Shown here piece after piece: positions 2,382 to 43,224 of a stretch of 64,000 nucleotides of DNA. The number at the start of each line of letters is the position of its first letter. Within the stretch, counting starts at the first letter, position 1. This stretch comes from Ureaplasma sp. Hg1. GTDB lineage: Bacteria; Bacillota_I; Bacilli_A; Mycoplasmatales; Mycoplasmoidaceae. The notes beneath the pieces were generated by a model. It was given only the letters and a program-made list of their open reading frames with translations. It was not told the origin of the DNA and did not search any database. Made by a program: the position numbers and the translations under genes. The stretch spans positions 27,876 through 91,875 of the forward strand of contig JAACJV010000002.1 in the NCBI GenBank assembly GCA_021378535.1, read 5' to 3'.

Positions 2382-2407
2382 AGAGCCTTTAGAGGCTCTA
2401 TTTTTTA
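2382..2407 (+). terminator. rho-independent terminator
   Basis: Stem AGAGCCT (2382-2388) / AGGCTCT (2393-2399), then ATTTTTT. Confidence 0.6.
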
Positions 2408-2755
2408 TTGCAAGACACTATATTTAAGACACAAATTATTTCATCATTACAATAAGATTTGGTATTTTAATTACAAAATTGAATTATTTTTAAAATTAAA
2501 ATACAATTTCATAATGAATTAATGGTTCAACAAATTCAACTATATTTAATATTTTTACTTAACTTTAGCATTGACTTTAAAAATATTTCATTATTTTTGA
2601 CATAAATTCTTTTGAGGTATTCCATCCTTTGTTATAATTATTATGTAATATATATTAAATTATTCATTCTATTAGAACGTAGTAAACTATTCTAGTTTGA
2701 TTGATTACATTTTAATTATAGTTACTCTTACATAGAATTAATTGAGGGCATAAAA

Positions 2756-5700
2756 ATGGCAAAATATAATGATATCCAAAATCGGGATTTTAGAAAAGCA
2801 GAAAAAGCTCCATCTGCAGTAGAATTAACTAGAAATATCGATAATTTTGGTGTTACATTAAAACTTAAAGAAGATGTACTTTTGAACTTAACAAAAACAC
2901 CAGAAGGGAAGATGTACGTTGATCAAGATAAAAGTAGTTTTTGAGGCGTTAATGCAATGTATAGTTTTGGGGAAACAGCACCGCAAAATGAAATTGATAA
3001 AATTAACATCGTTAAACATTATGATCCTAAAAATGATGTACATACTTTAAATTTATTGCGAGCAGAAGCAAATAAAATTATTACTGCGGCAAAAGCAGAA
3101 TATAAAAAAAAGTCGCTACATGCAAAACTTTTAAGTGATAAAAAAATTACTTTCGCAGAAATTAAAGCTAGCCATTTATTATCTAAAGCAAAGGGAATTG
3201 AAATTACTTATGTTGATCGTCAAAATGAAGAAGTACGCAAGCGTGAAGCTTTACTATTGATTGATGAGTGAAAAGAAAAAGCTGTTGAAAATAATTCTAC
3301 TCGTTTAGAATATTTGACACAAAGAGAAGAAAAATCACATGAAAAACTAAAAGGTCATGAAATGAGTGAAAGAGCTATTGCTGAAGAAAGACTTCTAGAA
3401 AGAGAAGTTTATGCTAAAGCACATTTAGAATGAGAAAAAGAAAAAGCTATCACATTGTCAAAAGGAATGTATTTTAATGTACCGCCTCCAATTCACAAGA
3501 AAATTTTAGGAACAAGAAATAATTACAAAGACGAATTAAAATATTCAACAATTAGTGAACTTAAAGGAGACCGAGTAATTAATTTATTAAATAATAAAGA
3601 AAGCATAAACGATGTTGATTATATTGATTCAACAAAACGCGGTAATGCTTTAAGTAAATTTAATAAATTTACAAAAAACCCTAAAACACATGCACTTGAA
3701 AGTAGAATGGATACCACAACTAGACGTAACCCACATGTCTACATCGTTGATGAAGATATATACGAAAGTCAATTACGCAAAAACAATTATATTGATGCAA
3801 AAAAAGAACGGTTTGAAATAATGGTTGATGCACGTATGTATGCCCCATTCAAAGAATACCTTCACGTTGAATGAAACGAAGAAGATTCAAATGATGAAAT
3901 TAAATACCAAAATCAGAAGAAATTGGCAAAAGTTCGAAGTGATTCAGAAGACGTTCAACGCTATTATTTAAATAAAGAAGCTAAAGAGGAAGCCTTACGT
4001 AAATATAACGAAAATGCCGGCGAAAGAGAACCTTCATATTACTCTGTTGAGGATTGATCAGATAATGAGTATATCAACGGAGCAAAACAAGATGGCATAT
4101 TTAAACGTTGATTTAAATCTAAAAAAGAACAAAATTATGAACAATCATTAAATTTTAGAGATACAGAAGAATTTGATGCAGAAACTTCTAATATGTATTT
4201 AAATGATAAAAATGAAATTAATGAATTAAAATTATATTTAGCTAAAAATCAAAATTATATTGATGTTTATGATGGTCAACTTTTAGACCGTACACGTTTA
4301 ATTGATGATAAGTTTTACGCTTCAATTGATCATATTATACCTTTAGAATTGAGCGGAGATGATTCAATTAGTAATAAGGTTCTAACTAAAACTGAACTTC
4401 ATTACAGTAAGGGTGACTTAACTCCTTTTGAATGGATGGATGATGAAAACTTTGATTTATTTTATGAAGAAGTTACAAAGTTATTGAAAGGCAAAGGACG
4501 TGAAAATAAAAAGCGTCTAAGAAATCTTATATTTATTAACAATGCTAAACATGAAGAATATTTAGATGAAGATAATCAAGATTTTAGTAGTTACGAACAA
4601 TATGACGATGAAGATTATCAAGGAAATTCACGTGACCAATATAAGATACAAAAAGCTAATGTTCTATTACGAAAACTTCCAATTCATCCCATTATTCATG
4701 ACGAACCATCAAAGCTATTGCAACACGGAATTAGAACGACAGATGCAATTAGAGCTTTTCAGCGTTTAAATGCTAATGACATTTACGCAGATAAAGAAAA
4801 GCAAAATATTTTAAATAAATTAAAATATGTTTGTGATGAAAATCGTAAGCAAGAAAATGCTTTTAGACATAATCAAGAAAAATCAAAACAATTGGATGAT
4901 TATGTTAAGGTAAAAGCAGATGAATTAAAGGCAAATTTTGTATCAAGTAAAACGAAATTATCTACAAAAAATTTCAATAAAGACCAAAAAATAGATGAAC
5001 GATATCGTAATATTTCTGAAACTTTATTTGAAAAATTTTCTATAGAACGACAAATGATAGATGAAAAAGAGGAAAATCTTCGCAACCGAGAGGAAGCACT
5101 TGAAATTCGTAACGAAGCTATCACTAAAGAAAAAATATTAAGTCATTTAGAAAAAGCTAATGTACGAGAAATTAAAACTTTACATCGCTTAAAAAATAAA
5201 TTGGATCAAAATAATAAAAAGTATAACTTTAATATTCCAACATTTGATTTTCCTTTCGCAAATAAATTGTCAGAAGTCGGCGGAGAAAAATATTTAAATT
5301 TGAAAAAAATTAATGATAAATTAGTTTTACAATGGATTTCAGAGGAAATTCGTGAAAATCAATTGGATGAAGACGAAGATATTAAAGTTGATGGTACTAC
5401 ATCTATTATAGAAAAAGCTTCAAAATTCATTGACGGCTTTAGAGTTGGTGATATTGATAATAAAGTCGAAATTATTAATGAATCATTACCAAATAATATT
5501 ACTAAAATTGTTGTTCTTGAAAAATATCGTCATAAAGATGAAATAGAACAAATTGAATTTTTAAGAGCTTTGGCTAAATCTATCGTTACTGATGCTGCAG
5601 ATGCCGCATTGTTGCAAGAAGCAAGAACTGTTGAGCAAGCTCACATCGAACTAGAAGAAAAGATAGAAGAAGCTAAAGTATATTTAAATAAATGTGAAGT

Positions 5701-14104: not shown

Positions 14105-17100
14105 ATGAGTAGAACTTTATTAGAATTACGAACAATTTATAAGACATATGAACTTGAGGGCAAGGAAATAAAGGTCTTAAACAACATTAATTTAGATCTT
14201 GAGGAACACGTTTCTCTAGCTATTTTAGGTAATATTGATAGTGGTAAAACATCACTTATTAAAATAATGGCGCATTATATTGAACCATCTTTTGGTGAAG
14301 TAGAATTATTTCCATTCGATAAAACTCAGCCAGCTTTAGTTAATAGTGTTTTTCATGAGACATCACCATTCGAAGTAGCTAGAAAAAAACTAGGACCATC
14401 AACTACTGTTGGAGAGATGATTGAACTTATTTATGATTCAAGAAGAAATTCAAGCGAAAAAGAAGAATTGGAAAAATTAATCGAGGCTAGTGGCTTAATA
14501 AAAGTAAATGAAGAAGAAACAATAGATAAATTAAGTCATTCAAATTACAATAAAGCTAAATTAATTTCAATTTTAGCTAATAAACCAGCACTTGCTTTTT
14601 TTGACGATGCAATTAGTGATTTAAAATACGGAAATAAAATGAAATTCACTAAATTAATGGGAGAATATATTAGAAAACACAAAATGACTGTTGTAATGAC
14701 AGCGAACGACCCAGAAGATGTTGTACATATTTGTGATGAGTATATTGTTTTAGCAAAAGGTAAAATTGCGACATTTGGTAATGTTGAAATTCCTGATGGT
14801 TTTGTTAATTTTTCTGAAAGTGTTAGTAAATGAGTTGAAGTTGGTAAGGTTGAAAATCACGAAAACGTTGTTACATGATTTAAAAACATATTCAGTTCTA
14901 ATAGAAAAATTCTTGAAGAACGAAGATTACGAGACGCTGCGAAAAATCAATTATTATTACCAGGCGGAGAACCCGTTGATGTACCTAATGCTAAAGTAAT
15001 TGAAGCTAGTGGAAAATTAAATGATGATGATATCGAAGATAACATTGATAACCCAAATGTTGCGCCATCAGGGCGGGGTTCTTTTTTGGATCGTATCCGA
15101 GTTAGAGAAGGTCGTAATGAAGAGGCAGAAGAACCGCAAAATGACGCTCCTAGCGGTATTGAAACAAATAATGACGAACGTCGTAGCCAAATGGATAGTA
15201 TGAAGACAATGCAATCATTCACTGTTAAAGAAGGCTCAACCGATGAACAAAAAGAGTATCGTAAAAAAATAAAAGAAATTGGTAATGACGATGAATCAAG
15301 TAAAAGAAGTGAACGTGCTGCACGATTAGCTAGAATTCAAGCAATTGAGGGTAAAAATAGTCCTAGTAGCAATAACCCTGAAACGGCTAATTTTGCCAAC
15401 GAAACTCCTGAACAAAGACTAGCAAAGCGTAAAGAGATGCTAGAAAGAATCAAGGCTAGAGAAGGCGGCGAAGCAACCCCAGATAATACAAATGATCATA
15501 AACCAGAATCAGCAGAAGAAAGACTAGCAAAGCGTAAAGCGATGCTAGAAAGAATCAAGGCTAGAGAAAATGGTGAAGCAACTCCAGACAATACAAATGA
15601 TCATGAAGCAGAAACTCCAGAACAAAGACTAGCAAAGCGTAAAGCGATGCTAGAAAGAATCAAAGCTAGAGAAAATGGTGAAGCAACTCCAGATGATACA
15701 AACGATCATGAAGCAGAAACTCCAGAACAAAGACTAGCAAAGCGTAAAGCGATGCTAGAAAGAATCAAGGCTAAAGAAAATGGCGAAGCAACTCCAGACG
15801 ATACAAATGATCACGAAGCAGAAACTCCTGAACAAAGAATAGCAAACCGTAAAGCGATGCTACAAAGAATTAAAGATAAAGAAGAAAACCCAGAATCATC
15901 AAATGAAGAGATAGTATCTAAAGAAGAAAATGAATCTGATGCTCATAAACATTTATCGCCTGCAGAACAAAGAGCTATTCAACGTAAACAAATGTTGGAA
16001 CGTATCAAAGAAAAACAAGCAAGTATTAAAGCGGGCCAAGTTGAAGTATCAAAAAAGAAGGAAGTTTTAAGTGCAGCTTCAATGGAACGTCGAAATAGAT
16101 TGGCCGCTATTAAAGCACAACAATCTAAAAAATCAACTATTCAATTAAAATTAGAAAAAGCAAAAGCAAAAAAAGAAGCTGAAGCATTAGCTCAAAATAA
16201 TGCAAATGTTAACGCTAATTCATTTGCTACTGAACAACATGTAAAAGAAGTGGATAATGTTGCACAAAAGCCGCAGCTTCCTAAATCACCTAGTGCTGAA
16301 CGTGCAGAAAGATTAGCGCGAATTAAAGCTAAGGAAAATAATTTATCTCCAGGAACAGCAATTACGGCTGAAAAACCGAAATTGGAAAAACCAGTTTCAC
16401 CATCACCAGTTGTTAAATCTGATGCTGCAATTGAACGTGCAGAAAGATTGGCACGTATTAAAGCAAAACAGCAATCAATTGCAAATAGTACCAAAATAGA
16501 ACACAAACCAACTACAAATACAATTGGAAATTCTACAGATCACAGTACTAAAACCCACGCTCCTACTGCTACCCACGCTCCCACTACCCACGTTCCTACT
16601 ACTCACGTTCCTACTACTCACGCTCCTACCACTACGAATGTTCATAAAGCTGCGAAACCAGTTATTGTTAGAAAAGAAAAATTAGTTGCAGAACAATCTC
16701 ATAATTTGGATGCAAAAGCAGCAGCACGTAAGGCAATGTTAGAAAGAATTAAAGAACGAGAAGTTACAACAACAAAATCTGACGTTAAAACTACAAATGC
16801 TAAAGCGATGATTGATCGTATAAAAGCAAGAGAAGGCAAACTTGTCATCGATGAAAATACTAAACCTAAAAAACCTCTTTCAATCGAAAGACAAAAGCAA
16901 AATATTGAACGTATTGCAGCAATGGGCAAAGGTAAAGATGATTTCAAGGAAATTGATCATATCAAAACAGAACGTAATCGGGCAAATCGCTTGGCACAAG
17001 CAGAGATTCAAAGAGATCAAACAATTAAATCATCAAGAATCCAAAAAGAAAATGCCGGACGAGCTCAAGTTCAACATGCCGAACAATTAAGAATTCAGAT

Positions 17101-18688
17101 GCAAGAATTAGAACAATTAAAAAAGAAACAACTTGAAATTGCTGAGCAAAAATCTGAAATACAAAGATTGGCACAAGAGGCTGAAATGGCGAAAATGCGT
17201 CAAATAAATAATAGTAACATTCGTAACGCAAGAATTAGCGATGAAAAATCACTTTTGAATCAACAAGCCTTAATGCAAAAAGTAAATTTCCGTGCACAGG
17301 AAATTGAAGATAGATCAAAACTTGAATTAAATAGAATTGAAAAAGAACATTCTATTAAAATAGGAATCTTACAAAATAGATTAGACGAAGAAGAAAAACT
17401 TCGTAAAATTAAAGAAAAAGAAGCTCAATTATCTTTAGAATCTGCAGTCAAACAAGCTGAACTTGTTTCCACAAGAATTGCGAATGAAAAATCTCTGGAA
17501 TTAAAAAGTACTCGAGAATCGCAATTAGCTAATCAATTATTAGAAATTGAAAAACTTGTTAAACAAATGGAAGCTTCTAGCGGATCTCGTAACGATGAAT
17601 TGATGAAAAACGCGATTGAGATGAAATATAAGGTTTTACATCAACAAGAATTAGCAAATAGAGCCGCTCGTGATGCAACGCTTGCGAATCAAAAATTAGC
17701 TAGACAAGAAAGAATAGCTAAAGACTTACGTATTCAAGCTGAACGAACTAGAAAATATAAAGTTGAGGCCGAACGTAAAAATTCAGAACATATGAATGAT
17801 ACCAATGTTGCTGGTCTTAATGAAATCAAGTTACAAAAGATGAGAATTGAAAAAATGTCAAATGATATTTCTGAAATCAAAGATTTAATTAAAGAAAGCA
17901 TTTCAAGTGGAGACATTAATGCAATGAATCGTATTAATTCATTAATTACGAATTCAAGCGTAAATAAAAATTTGAGTCCTTCCCAAATTATGGTGGGTCA
18001 CAATCCTGGAGGTAATTATAACTTAAAACCAGTATCTCAATACACACCGGGAGCTCAAGCCACTAAAGTAGTTGGGGCAAATGGAGTTGTGATGTCCAAT
18101 GTAGTAAGAACTGCGCCACATTATAAACCAATGAAGAATCCAATGATTGTAGCAAATAGAGCTAATAGTAAACAATATTTAACCGGTATTGATAAACAAA
18201 TTTGAGAATCAGAACAACGTTTGATGGATTTGCGCTTATTAAAACATAGAGAGGCAGAAAGTATTGTTCAACAACAAATGGAAGACGAACGTCAAAGAAT
18301 ACAAGCTGAGCGATTACGTCTAGAAGAAGATGAAATTATTAATGAACGAAAATATCTTCATCAACAACAAAATAGCTATTTACAAAACAAACACTTAACT
18401 CGATATCATGATTACGGTACATCTAACGCTTCGTACTATCCTCAAAGAAAACCAATGCAATATACTGCTGGCGATAGAGAAAAAATTCAATCAAATAAAT
18501 CTGGCGATATTAATGCATATGAATATGGCAGATTAATTAATCAGGCAACGCCGTATAAATCAACATCAAAATATCAAGGTTCTACTCAACGAGTAAGTCA
18601 ATCTGCGCAACGGTTAAGTGAAGCGTTCCGCGAAGCTAATAGACCTCTTAATTACGAAGATATGGAAAATTATAGAAAAAAAAAATAA
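14105..18688 (+). CDS. 1527-aa chimeric protein: N-terminal degenerate ABC-type ATPase domain fused to a repeat-rich coiled-coil region
   Basis: ORFs 14105, 15086 and 18221 are in one frame. I read 14834..15086 codon by codon and found only TGA. Walker A GNIDSGKT is intact. The signature is LSHSN, Walker B is FFDD and the H-loop is TAND. I saw no signal peptide or TM segment. Confidence 0.8.
15401..15880 (+). repeat. in-frame tandem repeat, 105-bp unit (35 aa, ETPEQRLAKRKAMLERIKARENGEATPDNTNDHEA), about 4.6 copies
   Basis: AGACTAGCAAAGCGTAAAG recurs at 15416, 15521, 15626 and 15731, with a diverged copy at 15836. The period is exactly 105 bp, and the internal copies are nearly identical at nucleotide level. 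Confidence 0.9.
16553..16636 (+). repeat. in-frame 15-bp repeat encoding TH(A/V)PT x5
   Basis: ACCCACGCTCCTACT-type units encode THAPTATHAPTTHVPTTHVPTTHAPTT. Confidence 0.8.
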
Positions 18689-22893: not shown

Positions 22894-23064
22894 ATGGCAA
22901 GAGGAGTATCAGTAGATGGTGACTTAGAATATGCATTAAAAAAGTTTAAAAGAATTTCTAACGAAACTAAGAAAGACACTAAGCGTCATGAATATTATTT
23001 AAGACCAGGTCTTCGTAAAAAAGAAAAAATTAAAGAAGCTCGAAAAAAACACGCTAAATTTTAA
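22894..23064 (+). CDS. rpsU: 30S ribosomal protein S21
   Basis: MARGVSVDGDLEYALKKFKRISNETKKDTKRHEYYLRPGLRKKEKIKEARKKHAKF. AGAGGGTGA RBS is present. Confidence 0.9.
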   Translation: MARGVSVDGDLEYALKKFKRISNETKKDTKRHEYYLRPGLRKKEKIKEARKKHAKF

Positions 23065-23095
23065 AAAAAACCTTAATAAAATTAAGGTTTTTTTA
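23065..23095 (+). terminator. rho-independent terminator after rpsU
   Basis: AACCTTAAT (23069-23077) / ATTAAGGTT (23081-23089), loop AAA, then TTTTT. Confidence 0.7.
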
Positions 23096-23118
23096 TCGCC
23101 TTATTTGTAGTTATAGTT

Positions 23119-25122
23119 ATGAAAATAGTCGAACAAAACAGTTTAAGTGAATGTGGTGTATGTGTAATAAATATGCTTGCCAACGAATTCCATCGCAGCC
23201 ACATTAACAAAAATCAAATTCTTAAATATGTCTATTTACCTGAAAACGGTTTAAGTATTCTAGAACTTGAAGAATATGCTATGGTTTATGGTGTTGGAAT
23301 GGAATCATATGAGATGGATTTTAAGGAATTTGAATCATATGAAACAAAAAAATATTTTGTTCTATTACTAAAAAAAACTACTGGTTTGCATTATGTAATC
23401 GCTAGAAAAAAACATCAAAACTTAATTATTTATGATTCGGTTGAAGGAATTATAAACACGACAGTTGGTGAAATAAGTTCTGAATATTGCAATATTATTA
23501 TTCTTTGTAAAAAAACTAAACCTATCGAAATAAATTTTGACAATGATAATTCATGATGAAAATATATAAATTACAAATATTTTTTTATTAGTATTGTTCT
23601 TCAAATGATAATTATTGTTTTAACTTTATTTGGTGGGACATTTATGAAGAATATAATTGATATGGCTATTACTGATGAATCACTTAATAACTTAGTTATT
23701 TTAGCGATAACATATTTATTTGTTTTTATTTTAAGTCATTTAGCCGAATGAATTTTAAATTTATATGGAAATTATGAAACCAGAAGACTATATATGATAA
23801 TGTTTAACATGTTTATTAGAAGAATTGAAAATAAAGAATTTAATTTCTATGATAAAACACCTATAGCTCAAACAATGCAATTGAGTTCCTATATGCAAAA
23901 ATTGGCTCATTTTTTTGCAGTTGATATAACACAATTGGCTAGTAATGTATTCTTAATTATTGTTGCAGTAATCATATTGAGTATTAGTAGTGTTTGATTT
24001 ATATTGATTACTATTATAGCTACATTTGGTTATTTAGCAGTCGCTATTTATGCTTATAGTTTTAATAAAAGTCGTTTAAAAAAGATTCTTAATAATAATG
24101 AGCAAAGTTTTAGTCATTTAAATGACTTTTTGGATTTAACTAAAAAAAATCAAAATTATATTTTAAATAATAAAGCATTAACTTTAATAAAAGATGATAA
24201 TTATACTAATTATCATCTTTACAAAGAAAGTGTTAATATTGATCAAAACAATAGTTTTATAACTAATAGTATAGATTCCTTAGTTTATGTATTCATTGTA
24301 ATTATAGGAAGTTTTTTAATAATCAAAGGTGATGTTAATTATAATGTAGCTATATTAACATATGCAGTTGCATTAAACAATATGATTAATCAGTCTGTTG
24401 ATGGAATATTCAGTTTTGTTATTAATATTAATGGTATTAAACAAGCTAACGAAATTTATCATAAACATATAAGGGTAAATAATTGTAATTATTTACCTGG
24501 AGTTCATTTCGGTAGAACAAAGGGTATTAAAATATCAAAGTTAAGTTACGGTTATAATAAACAACAACAGATAATTAAAGCTTTAGATATGAATATTGTC
24601 TCAGATACAATTATTAAAGGACCTAGTGGCTCTGGTAAATCAACGTTAATGAAAATACTAACAAGGAGAATTAAAATCGCTAATAACATGGTTTATTTGG
24701 ACGATATAGACATTAACTATCTAGATAGTTATAATATTAAACAAAATATTATCTACCATAGTAGTGAAGCCAATATTATTAATTTTAATATTAGTGATTT
24801 AATTCAATCTCACGATAATAAATTACGAATTAAAATCATCTCTTTAATTAAATTAATGCAAGTTAATTTAAATGCAACTAATTTTGATAATTTAAGTAGT
24901 GGTCAAAAACAAATTATTTCATTTCTCCAATTATTACTTTACACAAATAAAATTATTCTTTTAGATGAGCCCTTGAGTCACGTTGATCATGAAATAAAAT
25001 TATGAATTATTAGAGAATTAAAGCCAGTTCTTCTAGAAAATAATTTTATAGTATGGGTTAGTCACGATGCTACGATAGAACCTTTTTTTAAAAATAAACA
25101 GGAGATTTTGCATGATAAATAA
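23119..25122 (+). CDS. peptidase C39-containing ABC transporter (PCAT; bacteriocin/competence-peptide type exporter), 667 aa
   Basis: ORFs 23119, 23794 and 24004 share a frame, and I read 23554..23794 codon by codon. The N-terminal C39 domain has Q6, SECGVC, GLHYVIA and IIYDS. A TM domain follows. The NBD has GPSGSGKST (Walker A), LSSGQKQ (signature), ILLDEP (Walker B) and VSHD (H-loop). Confidence 0.85.
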
Positions 25123-25462
25123 AATTAAATATTTGACTATAACATTTGGTATTATGTTGATAACATTAATTATATTATTGTTTGCATTTAAAAAAGAAGA
25201 ATTAGCAGCTGGCTATTTTCTAATTAATAAAGATAGTACTTACATTGTAGCTAACGATGAAGTCACCTCTTCATTACATCAACATAATTACCATAAAATC
25301 ATTTTTTATTATAAAGGAAAAAAATATCAAGAAAATTATACATTTGCAGATAACATTGCTACAAATACTTATTTAATTAATTTTCCAAATGATATTAATA
25401 ATATGGATGAAATACAAATATATCTAGAAACTATAAGTCTTTTTGACTACATGCTCAAATAA
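25112..25462 (+). CDS. small membrane-anchored protein co-transcribed with the PCAT (possible accessory or immunity protein), 116 aa
   Basis: AGGAGA RBS lies inside the PCAT 3' end and the start overlaps PCAT by 11 nt. It has an N-terminal TM helix ITFGIMLITLIILLFAF. Confidence 0.6.
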   Translation: MINKIKYLTITFGIMLITLIILLFAFKKEELAAGYFLINKDSTYIVANDEVTSSLHQHNYHKIIFYYKGKKYQENYTFADNIATNTYLINFPNDINNMDEIQIYLETISLFDYMLK

Positions 25463-25500
25463 AATCATCACGTAATAATATTTAATTACGTGATGATTTT
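25461..25500. terminator. bidirectional terminator between the PCAT operon and nfo
   Basis: 16-bp perfect stem AAAATCATCACGTAAT / ATTACGTGATGATTTT. Confidence 0.7.
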
Positions 25501-26407
25501 ATTTAATTAACTCTGGCTTAAAATCCTTAAATTTTCTATTTTTTATCATTTCAATTTCCTCGCCATAAGGAGCTATTGAAATCTTTTTTTCTATATCTTT
25601 AACAATTCACGGTGTTTCTAAAATTTTAACGATACCATCAAATTTAGGATGATATATCCACTTTATTAGAGCCTCATACCCAATATGTCCATAACCTATA
25701 TTTTCATGGCGGTCTTTATGGGCTCCAATTGGATTTTTAGAATCATTAATATGAAATAATTTGATTTGTTCTAGACCTATAATTCGATCAAACTTTTCTA
25801 TTACATCATCTATTTCATTCATATCATAACCAGCATCACTAGCGTGACAAGTATCAAAACAAACGCCTATATTATGTTTTTTATCCACACCATCTATAAT
25901 TATTTTTAATTCTTCAAACGTAACACCAACTTCCGAACCTTTTCCAGACATCGTTTCTAGGCAAATAACAACGTTTGTGTCCATTGAGTTAAGTACTTTA
26001 TTTAAACCGTATATAACTTGATCTAAACCTGTAGTTAGAGATTGATCTAAACGGCTTCCAGGATGAAGCACAATATATTTGGCACCCAAATCTTCTGCCC
26101 GTCTAATTTCTTTACCTAAAAATTCAATACCTAATTGACGAATGCTAGGCTTAGCTGAACACAGATTAATAATGTACGGTGCATGAATGATTACATTTGC
26201 AATTGGAATATTATGTTGTTTTAATAAATCATGAGCTTCATTTATTTTAAATATCTCAGTTGGTTTACGCATTGTATTTTGTGGCGCTCCGGTATAAACC
26301 ATTAAAGCGTTAGCGTTATAACTTAACGCCTCTTTAACACTTCCTAAAAAGTAATCTTTTGCTTTTAAACTAACATGACTACCTATATACAATTTATATT
26401 TATTCAT
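25499..26407 (-). CDS. nfo: endonuclease IV (deoxyribonuclease IV)
   Basis: Motifs include HAPYIINL, VLHPG, LETMSGKG, CFDTCH and HINDS. The track ORF end at 25607 is a TGA (ETPW...), and reading on gives ...APYGEEIEMIKNRKF...ELIK with TAA at 25501-25499. Confidence 0.9.
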
Positions 26408-27414: not shown

Positions 27415-28745
27415 TATTTATTGCCACCTCTTATACGAGAGTTTTTATCTTTTCAAAATAATGTTATGGGAACTTTATCTAAACCAAATACTTCCCTAAT
27501 TCTATTTTCAACATATCGACCATAACTAAAGTGTAAATATTTCGGGTTATTAACAAAAATAACAAACGTAGGTATTTGGCTTTTAACTTGTGTCGCATAC
27601 GAAATATTTAATCTCCCACCTTTAAATCCAGGAGGTTGTTGCATCATTTGAGCTTTTAAAATTGTCTCATTTAATAATGATGTTGAAATTTTTCTATTTA
27701 ATTGTTCTTCAATAGCATTCAATGTCTCAAAAATAGTGTGAACTCTTTTATTATCATAAGCGCTAATAAAAACAAGTGGTGCCCAAGCTAAATATTTAAA
27801 TTTGCTCCGTATCATTTTAGTAAATTGATTCATAGTACTATTATCTTTTTTCACTAAATCTCATTTATTGACTACAATAACGGTTGGAATGTTTGCACCA
27901 TAAGCTAAACCACCGATAATTTCGTCTTGTTCAGTAAAAGGCTGAGATCCATCAATCATTACAAGTATAACCTTGCTCCTACGAATAGCACCTTCAGCTC
28001 TAATTACTGAGTATTTCTCAACTTGCTCCTTAATTTTACCTTTTCTTCTAATACCCGCTGTATCAATTATTGTATATTGTCTATTTTGGTATTTAAAATC
28101 ACTGTCAATAGAATCTCGAGTAGTACCTGCAATTTCACTTACAATAACACGCTCCTCACGTAGGATTGTATTTGTTAATGAAGATTTACCTACATTAGGT
28201 TTACCAATTATACAAAATTTAAAAGTGTCATCTCTACTATGCTCAGGTTCGGGTGGCAATTTACCTACTATTTCATCTAATAAATCCCCTACACCAATAC
28301 CGTGTTCAGCTGACAATAAAAATGGTTTACCAAAACCTAGTTGATAAAATTGATTCATTTTTTCATTTGCTTTATTTGATTCAGCCTTATTAACAACTAG
28401 AATAATTTGTTTAGTTTTAGCGTGTTGCTTCAATATTTTTGCAACATATTCGTCATCAAGATTAATTCCATCTTTGTATGAAACTATAAATATTATTACT
28501 TGTGATTCATCGATTGCAAAGTCTACTTGCATTTCAATATTTGTCTTAAAAGTTTCCTCTTTTAATGTTAACCCACCTGTGTCGATTAATTCAAATCGTC
28601 GTGTTAATCACTCTGCATCGCCATAAATACGATCTCTAGTTACACCTGGTTGATCATCAACAATAGATTTTCTTTTTTTTATGATTCTATTGAATAGTGT
28701 AGATTTACCGACATTCGGTTTTCCAACGATTGCTATTGTTCTCAT
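27414..28745 (-). CDS. der: ribosome-associated GTPase Der (EngA), two tandem GTPase domains
   Basis: [19 protein letters not shown]...DTGG and a second [14 protein letters not shown]...DTAG. The track end at 27453 is TGA. The true TAA at 27416-27414 overlaps the gpsA ATG (TAATG). Confidence 0.9.
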
Positions 28746-28810: not shown

Positions 28811-29161
28811 TTACTTATTTCATAAATATGAAATGAATTCTTTAATCGCTTTATTTCTCTTCAAATAATAGTTTGAAACACTGCAATTCATTTCATCGAT
28901 AGTTTTCCTGTCAATAAAACAACCTTTTAAAAATTGTGAATTTATTTTATTCATACTTTTTAAAATGTCTTCTGTAAGTTTAATATATCCTTTCATTTCA
29001 TCAATTTTAGAAAATCAAGCTTTCGCTCCGCCTATTTCTGTTTCACCGTATGTTTCATAGTGTTTCACTCTAAAATCATATAAAGAATAAAGTCTAAAAT
29101 ATTCATTCACTCAAACTAGAATTTCTTTTTTGGTATTTGGCTTTATTGTAATTAAATCCAT
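28811..29161 (-). CDS. small (116 aa) protein with a C-terminal sigma-70 region-4 / ArpU-like helix-turn-helix
   Basis: Hand translation gives MDLITIKPNTKKEILVWVNEY...FLKGCFIDRKTIDEMNCSVSNYYLKRNKAIKEFISYLWNK. There are three in-frame TGA codons, so it is absent from the track. The RBS is weak. Confidence 0.4.
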
Positions 29162-29307
29162 TTTGTTTCTCTTTTCCAAGTGATGTACTAACAATTTCTA
29201 ATTTAACATAAATTAAAATAAAAAGCAAATATTTATATATACACGAAATCCCTTTTAATACTTAAAAGAAATTAATACTTTTTCAATTAAATAATTAAGT
29301 TATAGGT

Positions 29308-30454: not shown

Positions 30455-30730
30455 ATGAAGCAAAATAAAGACCAAATTATTCTACAAGAAGAAGTTAATC
30501 AAAATAGTTCTCAAAAAAATAATGAAAAAATAGCAGATTCAACCACAAAGAGATTTGGAATTATTCGAAAACAAGATATAGTTAACGATATTACTTCAGC
30601 TAATTTATTAGAAAAAAATAGTTCAACAATTAAACGCTACATCATAGCAAGCGTTCTAATTTTTATTGTTGTATTAGCCATTATCGGAACTGTATTTTTA
30701 ATTTTAATGGCTTTAAATAAAACTCAATAA
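30455..30730 (+). CDS. tail-anchored small membrane protein, 91 aa
   Basis: AAGAGGT RBS is present, with a C-terminal TM helix IIASVLIFIVVLAIIGTVFLILMAL. A hairpin terminator at 30766-30795 follows. Confidence 0.5.
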   Translation: MKQNKDQIILQEEVNQNSSQKNNEKIADSTTKRFGIIRKQDIVNDITSANLLEKNSSTIKRYIIASVLIFIVVLAIIGTVFLILMALNKTQ

Positions 30731-42678: not shown

Positions 42679-42906
42679 TTATTTTGTTTTAAAAGCTTTA
42701 GTTGAAATTACTGAGTTACTATCTTGTGGTATAAAATTATTAGTTTTCTTAGCTTGCTTCTTACTATTGCTAATATTTAATGAAGCAGTCACCGCACCAG
42801 AAATAAGACTAATTAAAACAGTAGCGCACGTAACTATCCCCCATATGATCCCTGGAGCCATCCCACCAACTATATTTTGTTTGCTATTTTGATCAAGTTG
42901 TTTCAT
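42679..42906 (-). CDS. double-glycine-leader peptide B (75 aa; predicted 15-aa leader plus 60-aa hydrophobic/cationic peptide)
   Basis: MKQLDQNSKQNIVGG | MAPGIIWGIVTCATVLISLISGAVTASLNISNSKKQAKK... The ATG overlaps the TAA of peptide A (TAATG). The stop is a true TAA, followed by a hairpin at ~42611-42650. Confidence 0.6.
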   Translation of the reverse strand: MKQLDQNSKQNIVGGMAPGIIWGIVTCATVLISLISGAVTASLNISNSKKQAKKTNNFIPQDSNSVISTKAFKTK

Positions 42907-43175
42907 TATGCAAAGGGAATTCCAAAATTTATTTTAGTATTATATCCATTAGGAGCGGCACGAATATATGTTTTGGGAGAAGTGTTTCTATACATATTAG
43001 GGCTAGAGAAAGCAGGGTTTGGGTTATTATAGTAAATGTTTTGGTTAACCAAATTTAAGACACCAATCATACTTCCTGAAATCATAGATAACCCAGCGGC
43101 TTTATTTCAAAAGAAATTTGATTTCATCGCCCCACCTGTGATATCTAGTTTAGATTCAATTTCTAATTTTTTCAT
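42906..43175 (-). CDS. double-glycine-leader peptide A (89 aa; predicted 15-aa leader plus 74-aa peptide)
   Basis: Hand translation gives MKKLEIESKLDITGG | AMKSNFFWNKAAGLSMISGSMIGVLNLVNQNIYYNNPNPAFSS...FGIPFA. A strong GGAGG RBS lies ~9 nt upstream. One TGA (Trp) explains its absence from the track. Confidence 0.6.
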
Positions 43176-43224
43176 TTTATTTACCTCCACTTATTACTAC
43201 TAAGATTTGTTTTATAAATCTTAA

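Follow-up and report, generated by a model that had tools for sequence, protein, structure and literature searches.

Here, we analysed a 64,000-nucleotide stretch of the genome of Ureaplasma sp. Hg1 (assembly GCA_021378535.1, contig JAACJV010000002.1, forward-strand positions 27,876 to 91,875; hereafter the window, with coordinates counted from its first nucleotide). We focused on a gene for a peptidase-containing ATP-binding cassette (ABC) transporter (PCAT) at 23119..25122 on the plus strand, on a small open reading frame (ORF) that overlaps its 3′ end, and on two genes for small peptides with double-glycine (GG) leaders at 42679..43175 on the minus strand. Judged from sequence comparisons, these two cationic, hydrophobic peptides, encoded in tandem, are the most likely substrates of the PCAT.

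At 28% G+C, the window yields long ORFs only with genetic code 4, under which the PCAT gene is a single ORF of 667 amino acids (aa) with a TAA stop, five in-frame TGA codons (146, 147, 211, 293, and 629), and a lone TGG (codon 646); table 11 fragments the same region into five or more pieces. The product was matched by both Pfam and NCBIfam models, with three Pfam domains in succession: Peptidase_C39 (PF03412; residues 2-134, E = 1.3e-21) in a peptidase domain at 23119..23520 (residues 1-134), ABC_membrane (PF00664; residues 155-419, E = 1.4e-17) over an exporter membrane domain at 23581..24375 that carries hydrophobic segments by hydropathy, and ABC_tran (PF00005; residues 497-619, E = 8e-16) in a nucleotide-binding domain at 24526..25071. 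The peptidase domain holds Gln6, Cys12 (in SECGVC), His91 (in GLHYVIA), and Asp106 (in IIYDS), and the nucleotide-binding domain holds a Walker A motif (GPSGSGKST), a signature motif (LSSGQ), a Walker B motif (ILLDEP), and an H-loop (SHD). The sister genome keeps the 667-aa ORF, with a ratio of nonsynonymous to synonymous substitution rates (dN/dS) of 0.051 between the two.

HMMER searches of the full database returned 58 representatives at E < 1e-30, mostly 600-690 aa long, of which P0004, P0005, P0018, P0026, and P0195 were traced to contigs, with Malacoplasma and [Mycoplasma] testudinis among the named organisms. Additional PCAT genes were sought by a DNA pattern for Q-x4-[ED]CG-x-CV, which added Malacoplasma muris, Mycoplasmopsis iners, a Ureaplasma species, and ‘Candidatus Mycoplasma liparidae’, the last being the nearest named-organism homologue (~34% identity). 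The family alignment comprised 60 sequences, most of them 19-34% identical to the window PCAT and two, from sister lineages, 85% identical. Its only invariant columns are Q6, C12, G44, and H91; Asp106 is kept in 50 of the 60 homologues and is Cys in 9, and the Walker A, signature, Walker B, and H-loop motifs are each at least 90% conserved (at G501, G504, G506, K507, S593, G595, Q598, D616, E617, and H649). The family profile aligned over its full length with PCAT1 of Clostridium thermocellum (4RY2; E = 3e-86), with the Gln, Cys, His, and Asp columns falling on their PCAT1 counterparts, and with ComA of Streptococcus pneumoniae (8HF4; E = 3e-78), while a single-sequence search with the C39 domain alone matched no entry in the PDB. 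PCAT1 (4RY2, 6V9Z, and 7T54) and ComA share with the window PCAT a C39 domain, a membrane domain, a nucleotide-binding domain, and all ATPase motifs, at an identity of only about 20-25%, and the window system differs from theirs in that its candidate substrate genes are not adjacent to the exporter. The best NCBIfam match of the window PCAT is NF045998 (Mbov_0121 family; 303 bits, residues 6-651 on positions 2-661 of a 673-position model). By its conservation, 23119..25122 is predicted to encode a functional PCAT.

The second gene, a table-4 ORF at 25112..25462 (+), encodes a 116-aa protein, overlaps the PCAT 3′ end by 11 nt, and has its own AGGAGA ribosome-binding site (25100..25105, +) within that 3′ end, seven bases 5′ of the ATG. 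Hydropathy places one N-terminal hydrophobic segment at residues 8-26, and a single-sequence AlphaFold2 model gave a confident helix for residues 2-25 and nothing else confident (mean predicted local distance difference test score, 61); dN/dS against the sister genome is 0.12. Against NF045999 (MAG1140 family) the protein scored 16.3 bits (E = 0.008; cut-off, 35 bits), same-position homologues scored 83.6 (M. iners), 35.5 (L003, which just passes), and 23.3 bits (L007), and NF045999 was the best NCBIfam match for 8 of 10 scanned partner proteins of relatives. An overlapping, N-terminally anchored ORF of 112-138 aa follows the PCAT gene in at least 10 other lineages (loci L003, L006, L007, L009, L017, L027, L039, L049, L050, L052, and L057). 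It stands behind the PCATs of M. muris, M. iners, a Ureaplasma sp., ‘Ca. M. liparidae’, and three metagenome-assembled genomes; behind that of a 22%-GC Mollicute (L003-L005; PCAT 25% identical), again with an 11-nt overlap; behind the P0005 PCAT (L006); and behind those of two walled Firmicutes (L007/L008 and L057). Accessory proteins of the ComB/LcnD type are ~450 aa long, as against ~116 aa with a single membrane anchor here. We take the 116-aa protein to be a divergent member of the MAG1140 family and a translationally coupled partner of the PCAT. Among the Mollicute PCAT loci compared, only genes with intact ATPase motifs are followed by the partner, and because it thus co-varies with a working ATPase, its distribution points to a role in transport.

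These results bear out what the original prediction, made from the letters of the window, had said of the two genes. It had described one merged, intact 667-aa protein with a C39 domain, a membrane domain, and a nucleotide-binding domain, all three of which the Pfam search finds, and it had listed the motifs given above (the H-loop as VSHD), every one of which is present; its identification as a PCAT agrees with the end-to-end profile alignments to PCAT1 and ComA and their matched catalytic columns. The degenerate C39-like domain with unconserved Cys and His that it had raised against itself was tested for, and Q6, C12, and H91 proved invariant in the 60 homologues. Sequence, hydropathy, and the AlphaFold2 model likewise confirmed the 11-nt overlap, N-terminal anchor, and AGGAGA site that it had assigned to the 116-aa ORF, and the recurrence of this ORF across lineages, mostly with NF045999 as best match, agrees with its view of a coupled protein in an accessory position.

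A separate subgroup of PCAT homologues in Mollicutes is shorter (608-625 aa; loci L010, L013, L015, L019, L020, L024, L031, L032, and L042; for example, L019 at ~2397-4240 on the minus strand of that locus). Its members keep the Q..ECG.CV peptidase motif and have lost Walker A, the signature, and the H-loop, with a Walker-B-like string left only in L019 and L032. They have no overlapping partner ORF, and valS lies directly behind the gene in four inspected loci (L020, L031, L032, and L042).

Turning to the candidate substrates, peptide 1 (89 aa; 43175..42906, −) has the leader MKKLEIESKLDITGG (43131..43175) and a mature part starting AMKSNFFW, and peptide 2 (75 aa; 42906..42679, −) has the leader MKQLDQNSKQNIVGG (42862..42906) and a mature part starting MAPGIIWG. 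Both leaders are 15 residues long, the stop of peptide 1 and the ATG of peptide 2 overlap as TAATG in a tandem, coupled arrangement, and a GGAGG lies at 43184..43188, 8 nt 5′ of the peptide 1 ATG. The predicted mature parts have 74 aa (8.2 kDa, isoelectric point 10.1, a hydrophobic helix, and GxxxG) and 60 aa (6.3 kDa, isoelectric point 10.1, a single transmembrane-like helix, and GxxxG), respectively. Of 345 window ORFs that start with ATG and encode 35-150 aa, only these 2 fit the GG-leader pattern, as against 0.2 in each shuffled window. In the sister assembly (GCA_021378525.1) both peptide genes are syntenic, between genes for a metallophosphoesterase and a choline kinase; the peptide 1 orthologue is P0031 in L002 (82% identical), and that of peptide 2 lies at L002 10270-10500. 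Compared with the sister genome, the peptide genes show a synonymous divergence (dS) of 1.4-1.7, with synonymous sites near saturation, and dN/dS is 0.080 for peptide 1 overall (0.033 for its mature part, 0.82 for its leader) and 0.097 for peptide 2. In the leaders, L-12, K-7, I-4, and GG are unchanged and other positions drift. The peptide 1 leader evolves almost neutrally apart from these positions. Both ORFs are, by these substitution patterns, real genes under purifying selection. The original prediction had pointed to two ORFs with matching GG leaders ~18 kb away from the exporter; with dN/dS of 0.08-0.10 and a leader frame that is kept, they hold up as genes, and the idea that they supply its substrates gains indirect support from this selection and from the homology of one of them to peptides behind the PCAT in walled relatives.

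These relatives come from three contig groups (L007/L008, L057, and L058) of code-11 organisms with 24-27% G+C, each with a related PCAT; at least two of them are walled (L007 with yqfD and a germination protease, L057 with a teichoic-acid-type glycerophosphotransferase). L007/L008 has the order PCAT, 126-aa partner, 47-aa and 59-aa GG peptides, rpsU, yqeY, and further on ybeY, cdd, era, and recO. L057 has PCAT, a 138-aa partner, a 48-aa GG peptide, a second, uncalled GG peptide (3305-3460), rpsU, and yqeY, and in L058 two GG peptides follow the PCAT directly, with no partner ORF and no rpsU alongside. On NF045998 the L007 PCAT scored 270 bits, and the 126-aa protein next to it matched NF045999 at E = 5.5e-5. 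The L007 peptides have leaders of 15 residues, as in the window (MKKLTDEQLTQIKGG followed by SSGWIALAIV, and MTKIDEKQLKEIKGG followed by ASTISGSII); they match classical families, and one reaches the bacteriocin_sig cut-off. The peptides of these operons (L007 12440-12755, L057 3157-3460, and L058 5098-5406) fall into an A type and a B type. The A-type peptide scored 20.9 bits on TIGR03949 (class IIb lactobin A/cerein 7B), just under the cut-off of 21.5 bits (E = 2e-4 for L007), and window peptide 2 aligned with the A-type peptides in hhalign with 82% probability (E = 1e-5), over both leader and hydrophobic core.

Several smaller observations concern these peptides. The uncalled peptide of L057, at 3305-3460 between the 48-aa peptide and rpsU, has 51 aa (MKKEELYNVRGG followed by FSFSASGLNAIVRG) and is missing from the contig gene calls. 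A-type tails read G(Y/I)xxPxxC and B-type tails GSA(L/I)(R/I)R...C, each with a single conserved terminal Cys, which hints that a disulfide might join A-type and B-type peptides in the walled relatives. The Mollicute peptides lack the Cys tails and have longer polar tails instead.

The neighbourhood of the exporter also recurs across lineages. rpsU adjoins the module in the window, the sister genomes, L007, L008, and L057; ybeY-(dgkA)-era-recO lies behind it in L003, L012, L016, L017, L027, and L038; comEC-holA and rpsU lie near it in L006; and, taken together, rpsU or ybeY-dgkA-era-recO stands beside it in at least 7 lineages. Most simply, a four-gene module would have been passed down vertically, with the peptide genes later moved elsewhere or lost in Mollicutes.

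Put together, we consider it probable that the PCAT acts in the ordinary way on the two unlinked GG-leader peptides at 42679..43175 (−). In this model, the C39 domain (Gln6, Cys12, His91, and Asp106) would recognise the 15-residue GG leader and cut after Gly-Gly, and the ATP-driven membrane domain would export the mature peptide from the cytoplasm; the exporter pair would have stayed beside rpsU while the peptide genes moved 18 kb away in this Mollicute. We infer the pairing of peptides with exporter, their cleavage and export, and any role of the mature peptides, which could be a bacteriocin-like two-peptide agent, RrlA-like regulators, or membrane components. The bacteriocin-like and RrlA-like readings taken up below are sub-cases of this model.

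We acknowledge that several observations weigh against this model. The peptide genes lie 18 kb from the exporter and are unlinked to it, and no GG-leader ORF was seen within 4-10 kb of ~20 other Mollicute PCAT genes (inspected surroundings, 8-20 kb), so linkage cannot test the pairing. Position -7 of the window leaders is Lys instead of the Leu found in classical leaders, and these leaders reached none of the classical bacteriocin-leader models. Compared with the B-type peptides, peptide 1 gave a probability of homology of 1%, with similarity in the leader and none detected in the mature part. No small membrane-protein ORF that might serve as an immunity gene adjoins the peptides, whose flanks are the metallophosphoesterase gene and a convergent choline-kinase gene. 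The window PCAT stays under the curated cut-off of NF045998 (303 against 500 bits) and that of TIGR01193 (bacteriocin_ABC; 89.6 against 523.85 bits). Because both window proteins fall below the NF045998 and NF045999 cut-offs, they are best described as predicted divergent relatives of these families, not as equivalogs. Finally, published surveys, as cited in the minimal-cell literature (PMC6609329, citing Dirix 2004), report no GG peptides in C39-carrying mycoplasma genomes.

A scan of metagenomes with the back-translated leader pattern returned 73 loci and no Mollicute among them; nearly all were internal ‘DIEGG’ strings in PilC/GspF-like proteins or N-terminal ‘GDIFGG’ strings in SulP-like transporters, together with a single unrelated 39-aa GG peptide.

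If the peptides are exported, they might form a two-peptide bacteriocin of the class IIb kind directed at competitors, with the 116-aa protein as export accessory or immunity protein, a reading we regard as possible and somewhat doubtful. The GG-leader genes form a translationally coupled tandem, both mature peptides are cationic (isoelectric point ~10.1) with a hydrophobic helix and GxxxG each, and the operons of the walled relatives resemble ordinary bacteriocin loci; on TIGR03949, the L002 orthologue of peptide 2 matches weakly (E = 0.023) and the L007 A-type peptide better (E = 2e-4). Class IIb bacteriocins (lactococcin G, plantaricins, and lactobin A/cerein 7B) indeed share with the window peptides an adjacent pair of GG-leader genes, cationic hydrophobic GxxxG products, and, as proposed for the window pair, export by a PCAT. 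However, the predicted window peptides differ from them in being longer (60 and 74 aa when mature), in their conserved polar tails, in Lys -7, in lacking an adjacent immunity gene, and in sitting at a core syntenic site under strong purifying selection (dN/dS of 0.03-0.09 for the mature sequences). Moreover, the module is core, vertically inherited, and set amid housekeeping genes across Mollicutes, whereas bacteriocin loci are usually accessory and variable, and the small protein is missing in L058.

Alternatively, the peptides might be RrlA-like regulators, with the PCAT maturing proteins of the MPN313/RrlA type that feed an alternative-sigma programme of recombination and gene transfer, which would make this system a Mollicute counterpart of ComAB competence-peptide processing; we think this unlikely, though it gives the analysis a specific lead. 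MPN313 is the homologue of MG_220, which is rrlA (PMC4446450, PMC6105099). All four GG peptides of the window and the sister genome match its family model, NF045747, at 17-24 bits (E = 4e-5 to 6e-3), as their best or only family, in a leader-dependent manner. This match was lost when the leader was removed and only the mature part was kept, or when the leader or hydrophobic core was scrambled; replacing GG by AA cost 7 bits or the match itself, and replacing L-12 or I-4 by Ala cost ~3 bits each. The classical GG peptides of L007 did not match NF045747. The family model of RrlA, itself a small protein, thus rewards the same L-12/I-4/GG spacing and hydrophobic segment that the window peptides have, which suggests, from probing of the model and not from an RrlA sequence, that RrlA-family proteins may begin with a GG-type leader.

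Published work on Mycoplasma genitalium supplies further points on both sides. Its sigma-20 regulon includes rrlA, the C39 ABC transporter gene MG_390, and MG_389, and groups these with rrlB, recA, and ruvAB; MG_390 is annotated as sunT (peptide secretion) and co-transcribed with MG_389 (PMC4446450, PMC6105099). This co-regulation of rrlA with MG_390 and MG_389 favours the RrlA-like reading, as does the position of comEC near the module in the window and in L006. Deletion of MG_390 lowered recombination-dependent transformation about tenfold and left the RecA-positive fraction unchanged, and deletion of rrlA or rrlB abolished sigma-20 activity (PMC4446450, PMC6105099). RrlA function was independent of MG_390 in the reported assay, in which deletion of rrlA abolished the RecA-expressing fraction, and its authors propose that RrlA acts on sigma-20 in the cytoplasm, inside the cell, unlike the exported products modelled here. 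In addition, the peptide scores of 17-24 bits stand against an NF045747 cut-off of 100, and a GG leader in RrlA is suggested solely by probing of the family model. The sigma-20 promoter pattern of M. genitalium was absent upstream of the PCAT, the peptides, and comEC in the window; the consensus may differ in this lineage.

Two small genes of the window touch on this subject. Divergent from comEC, 28811..29194 (−) encodes 127 aa that match the C-terminal domain of the MG284/MPN403 family (NF045770; 40.1 bits against a cut-off of 37.3). In M. genitalium, MG_285 and MG_286, neighbours of MG284, are sigma-20-induced (PMC6105099, Table 1). At 30455..30730 (+), a 91-aa tail-anchored protein is encoded directly 5′ of mraZ, the site of rrlA (MG_220) in M. 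genitalium; it lacks a GG leader, does not match MPN313, and gave a weak EssA-like match only (E = 9e-4).

Less probable still is that the PCAT is an orphan serving some other function (lipoyl-peptide import and transamidation, or general peptide export) and that the GG ORFs encode unrelated small membrane proteins, a reading we hold to be improbable. It was put forward for JCVI-syn3A 0401, a C39 transporter without any known GG peptide, which the source calls ‘consistent with’ other mycoplasmas (PMC6609329, citing Dirix 2004). For want of GG peptides in mycoplasmas, 0401 was tentatively modelled as importing and transamidating lipoyl-peptides; it is dispensable by transposon data (PMC6609329). 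The separation of peptides and exporter in the window, and the lack of GG ORFs near other Mollicute PCATs, are in its favour. Yet the lipoyl idea is a gap-filling assumption of a metabolic model, not a result, and the invariant Gln, Cys, and His, the conserved exporter fold, and the GG-peptide operons of relatives all fit ordinary PCAT function. ABC exporters with such a membrane domain are also not known to import, which counts against the lipoyl reading.

That the PCAT is a decaying remnant, as a stop-broken pseudogene or as a non-processing C39-like exporter, can hardly be right: table 11 does split the ORF into five or more pieces, but the whole window gives long ORFs only under code 4, and we reject both forms of this reading because the catalytic Cys and His are invariant in the family, its profile matches PCAT1 and ComA, and the 667-aa ORF is kept in the sister genome at dN/dS 0.051, quite unlike the truly degenerate subgroup of other Mollicutes.

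Type I secretion transporters of the HlyB type have the same overall fold, and their C39-like domains are non-cleaving and have no catalytic Cys. Their models (TIGR01846 and TIGR03375) match the window PCAT less strongly, and the window PCAT family, unlike them, has an invariant Cys12 and His91. An HlyB-type exporter with a non-catalytic C39-like domain is ruled out by the presence and invariance of Cys12. The window ORF list holds no large repeat-toxin substrate and no outer-membrane partner.

Returning to the model of a PCAT that processes the two unlinked peptides, much of the system has a published frame. PCAT and partner are already catalogued, curated by NCBI as NF045998 and NF045999, and C39-domain ABC transporters without a known substrate have been discussed for M. 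genitalium (MG_390/MG_389; PMC4446450, PMC6105099) and JCVI-syn3A (0401; PMC6609329). All of these resemble the window PCAT in being C39 transporters, and no substrate is known for any; MG_390 and 0401 are placed in the NF045998 kind by published annotation (sunT-like, C39), not by sequence comparison. The original prediction had known of no characterised peptide-secretion or bacteriocin system of this kind in mycoplasmas. Its novelty was overstated in that the families are curated and discussed in the literature; no biochemical characterisation is on record. New here are the conserved candidate substrates, an ancestral operon seen in walled relatives, and the sequence lead to RrlA.

These findings matter since C39 ABC transporters are retained even where genomes are very small, as in M. 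genitalium and the synthetic minimal cell JCVI-syn3A, and since the missing GG peptides led the metabolic model of the minimal cell to assign a speculative role in lipoyl transfer (PMC6609329). The candidate pair, the ancestral operon, and the RrlA lead make this old orphan-function problem testable, and if the peptides are substrates, an orphan Mollicute gene family gains a function. A wider form of the same idea is that Mollicute C39 transporters in general have cognate GG peptides, which earlier surveys would have overlooked owing to unlinked genes and atypical leaders, with RrlA/MPN313 as one branch; we give it as a tentative and unlikely suggestion. If true, near-minimal cells that lack two-component sensors would have a circuit resembling ComAB, and a true RrlA link would be relevant to the control of recombination and antigenic variation in mycoplasmas.

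As for the surroundings of the exporter gene, its upstream neighbour is rpsU (ribosomal protein S21; a table-4 ORF at 22894..23064, +), as originally predicted, with an L001 orthologue that carries PF01165. A perfect 14-bp hairpin with a 3-nt loop (100% complementary) and a T-run at 23064..23094 (+) reads as the putative rpsU terminator. From it to the PCAT ATG there are 24 nt (23095..23118) without a recognisable ribosome-binding site or promoter, and PCAT expression may come from read-through out of rpsU or from an unusual promoter. Downstream, a perfect 20-bp hairpin at 25457..25504 lies between the small ORF and the convergent nfo and reads as a likely two-way terminator. Scans for sigma-70 promoters and terminators gave counts not above those of shuffles in this AT-rich DNA; the terminator scan overlooked both hairpins, which were found by the repeat search. 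Further upstream in the window, 14105..18688 (+) is a 1527-aa ORF with an ABC ATPase-like N-terminus, whose L001 orthologue has 1697 aa and PF00005, and the 1152-aa ORF antisense to it is probably an artefact of a low-stop reverse frame.

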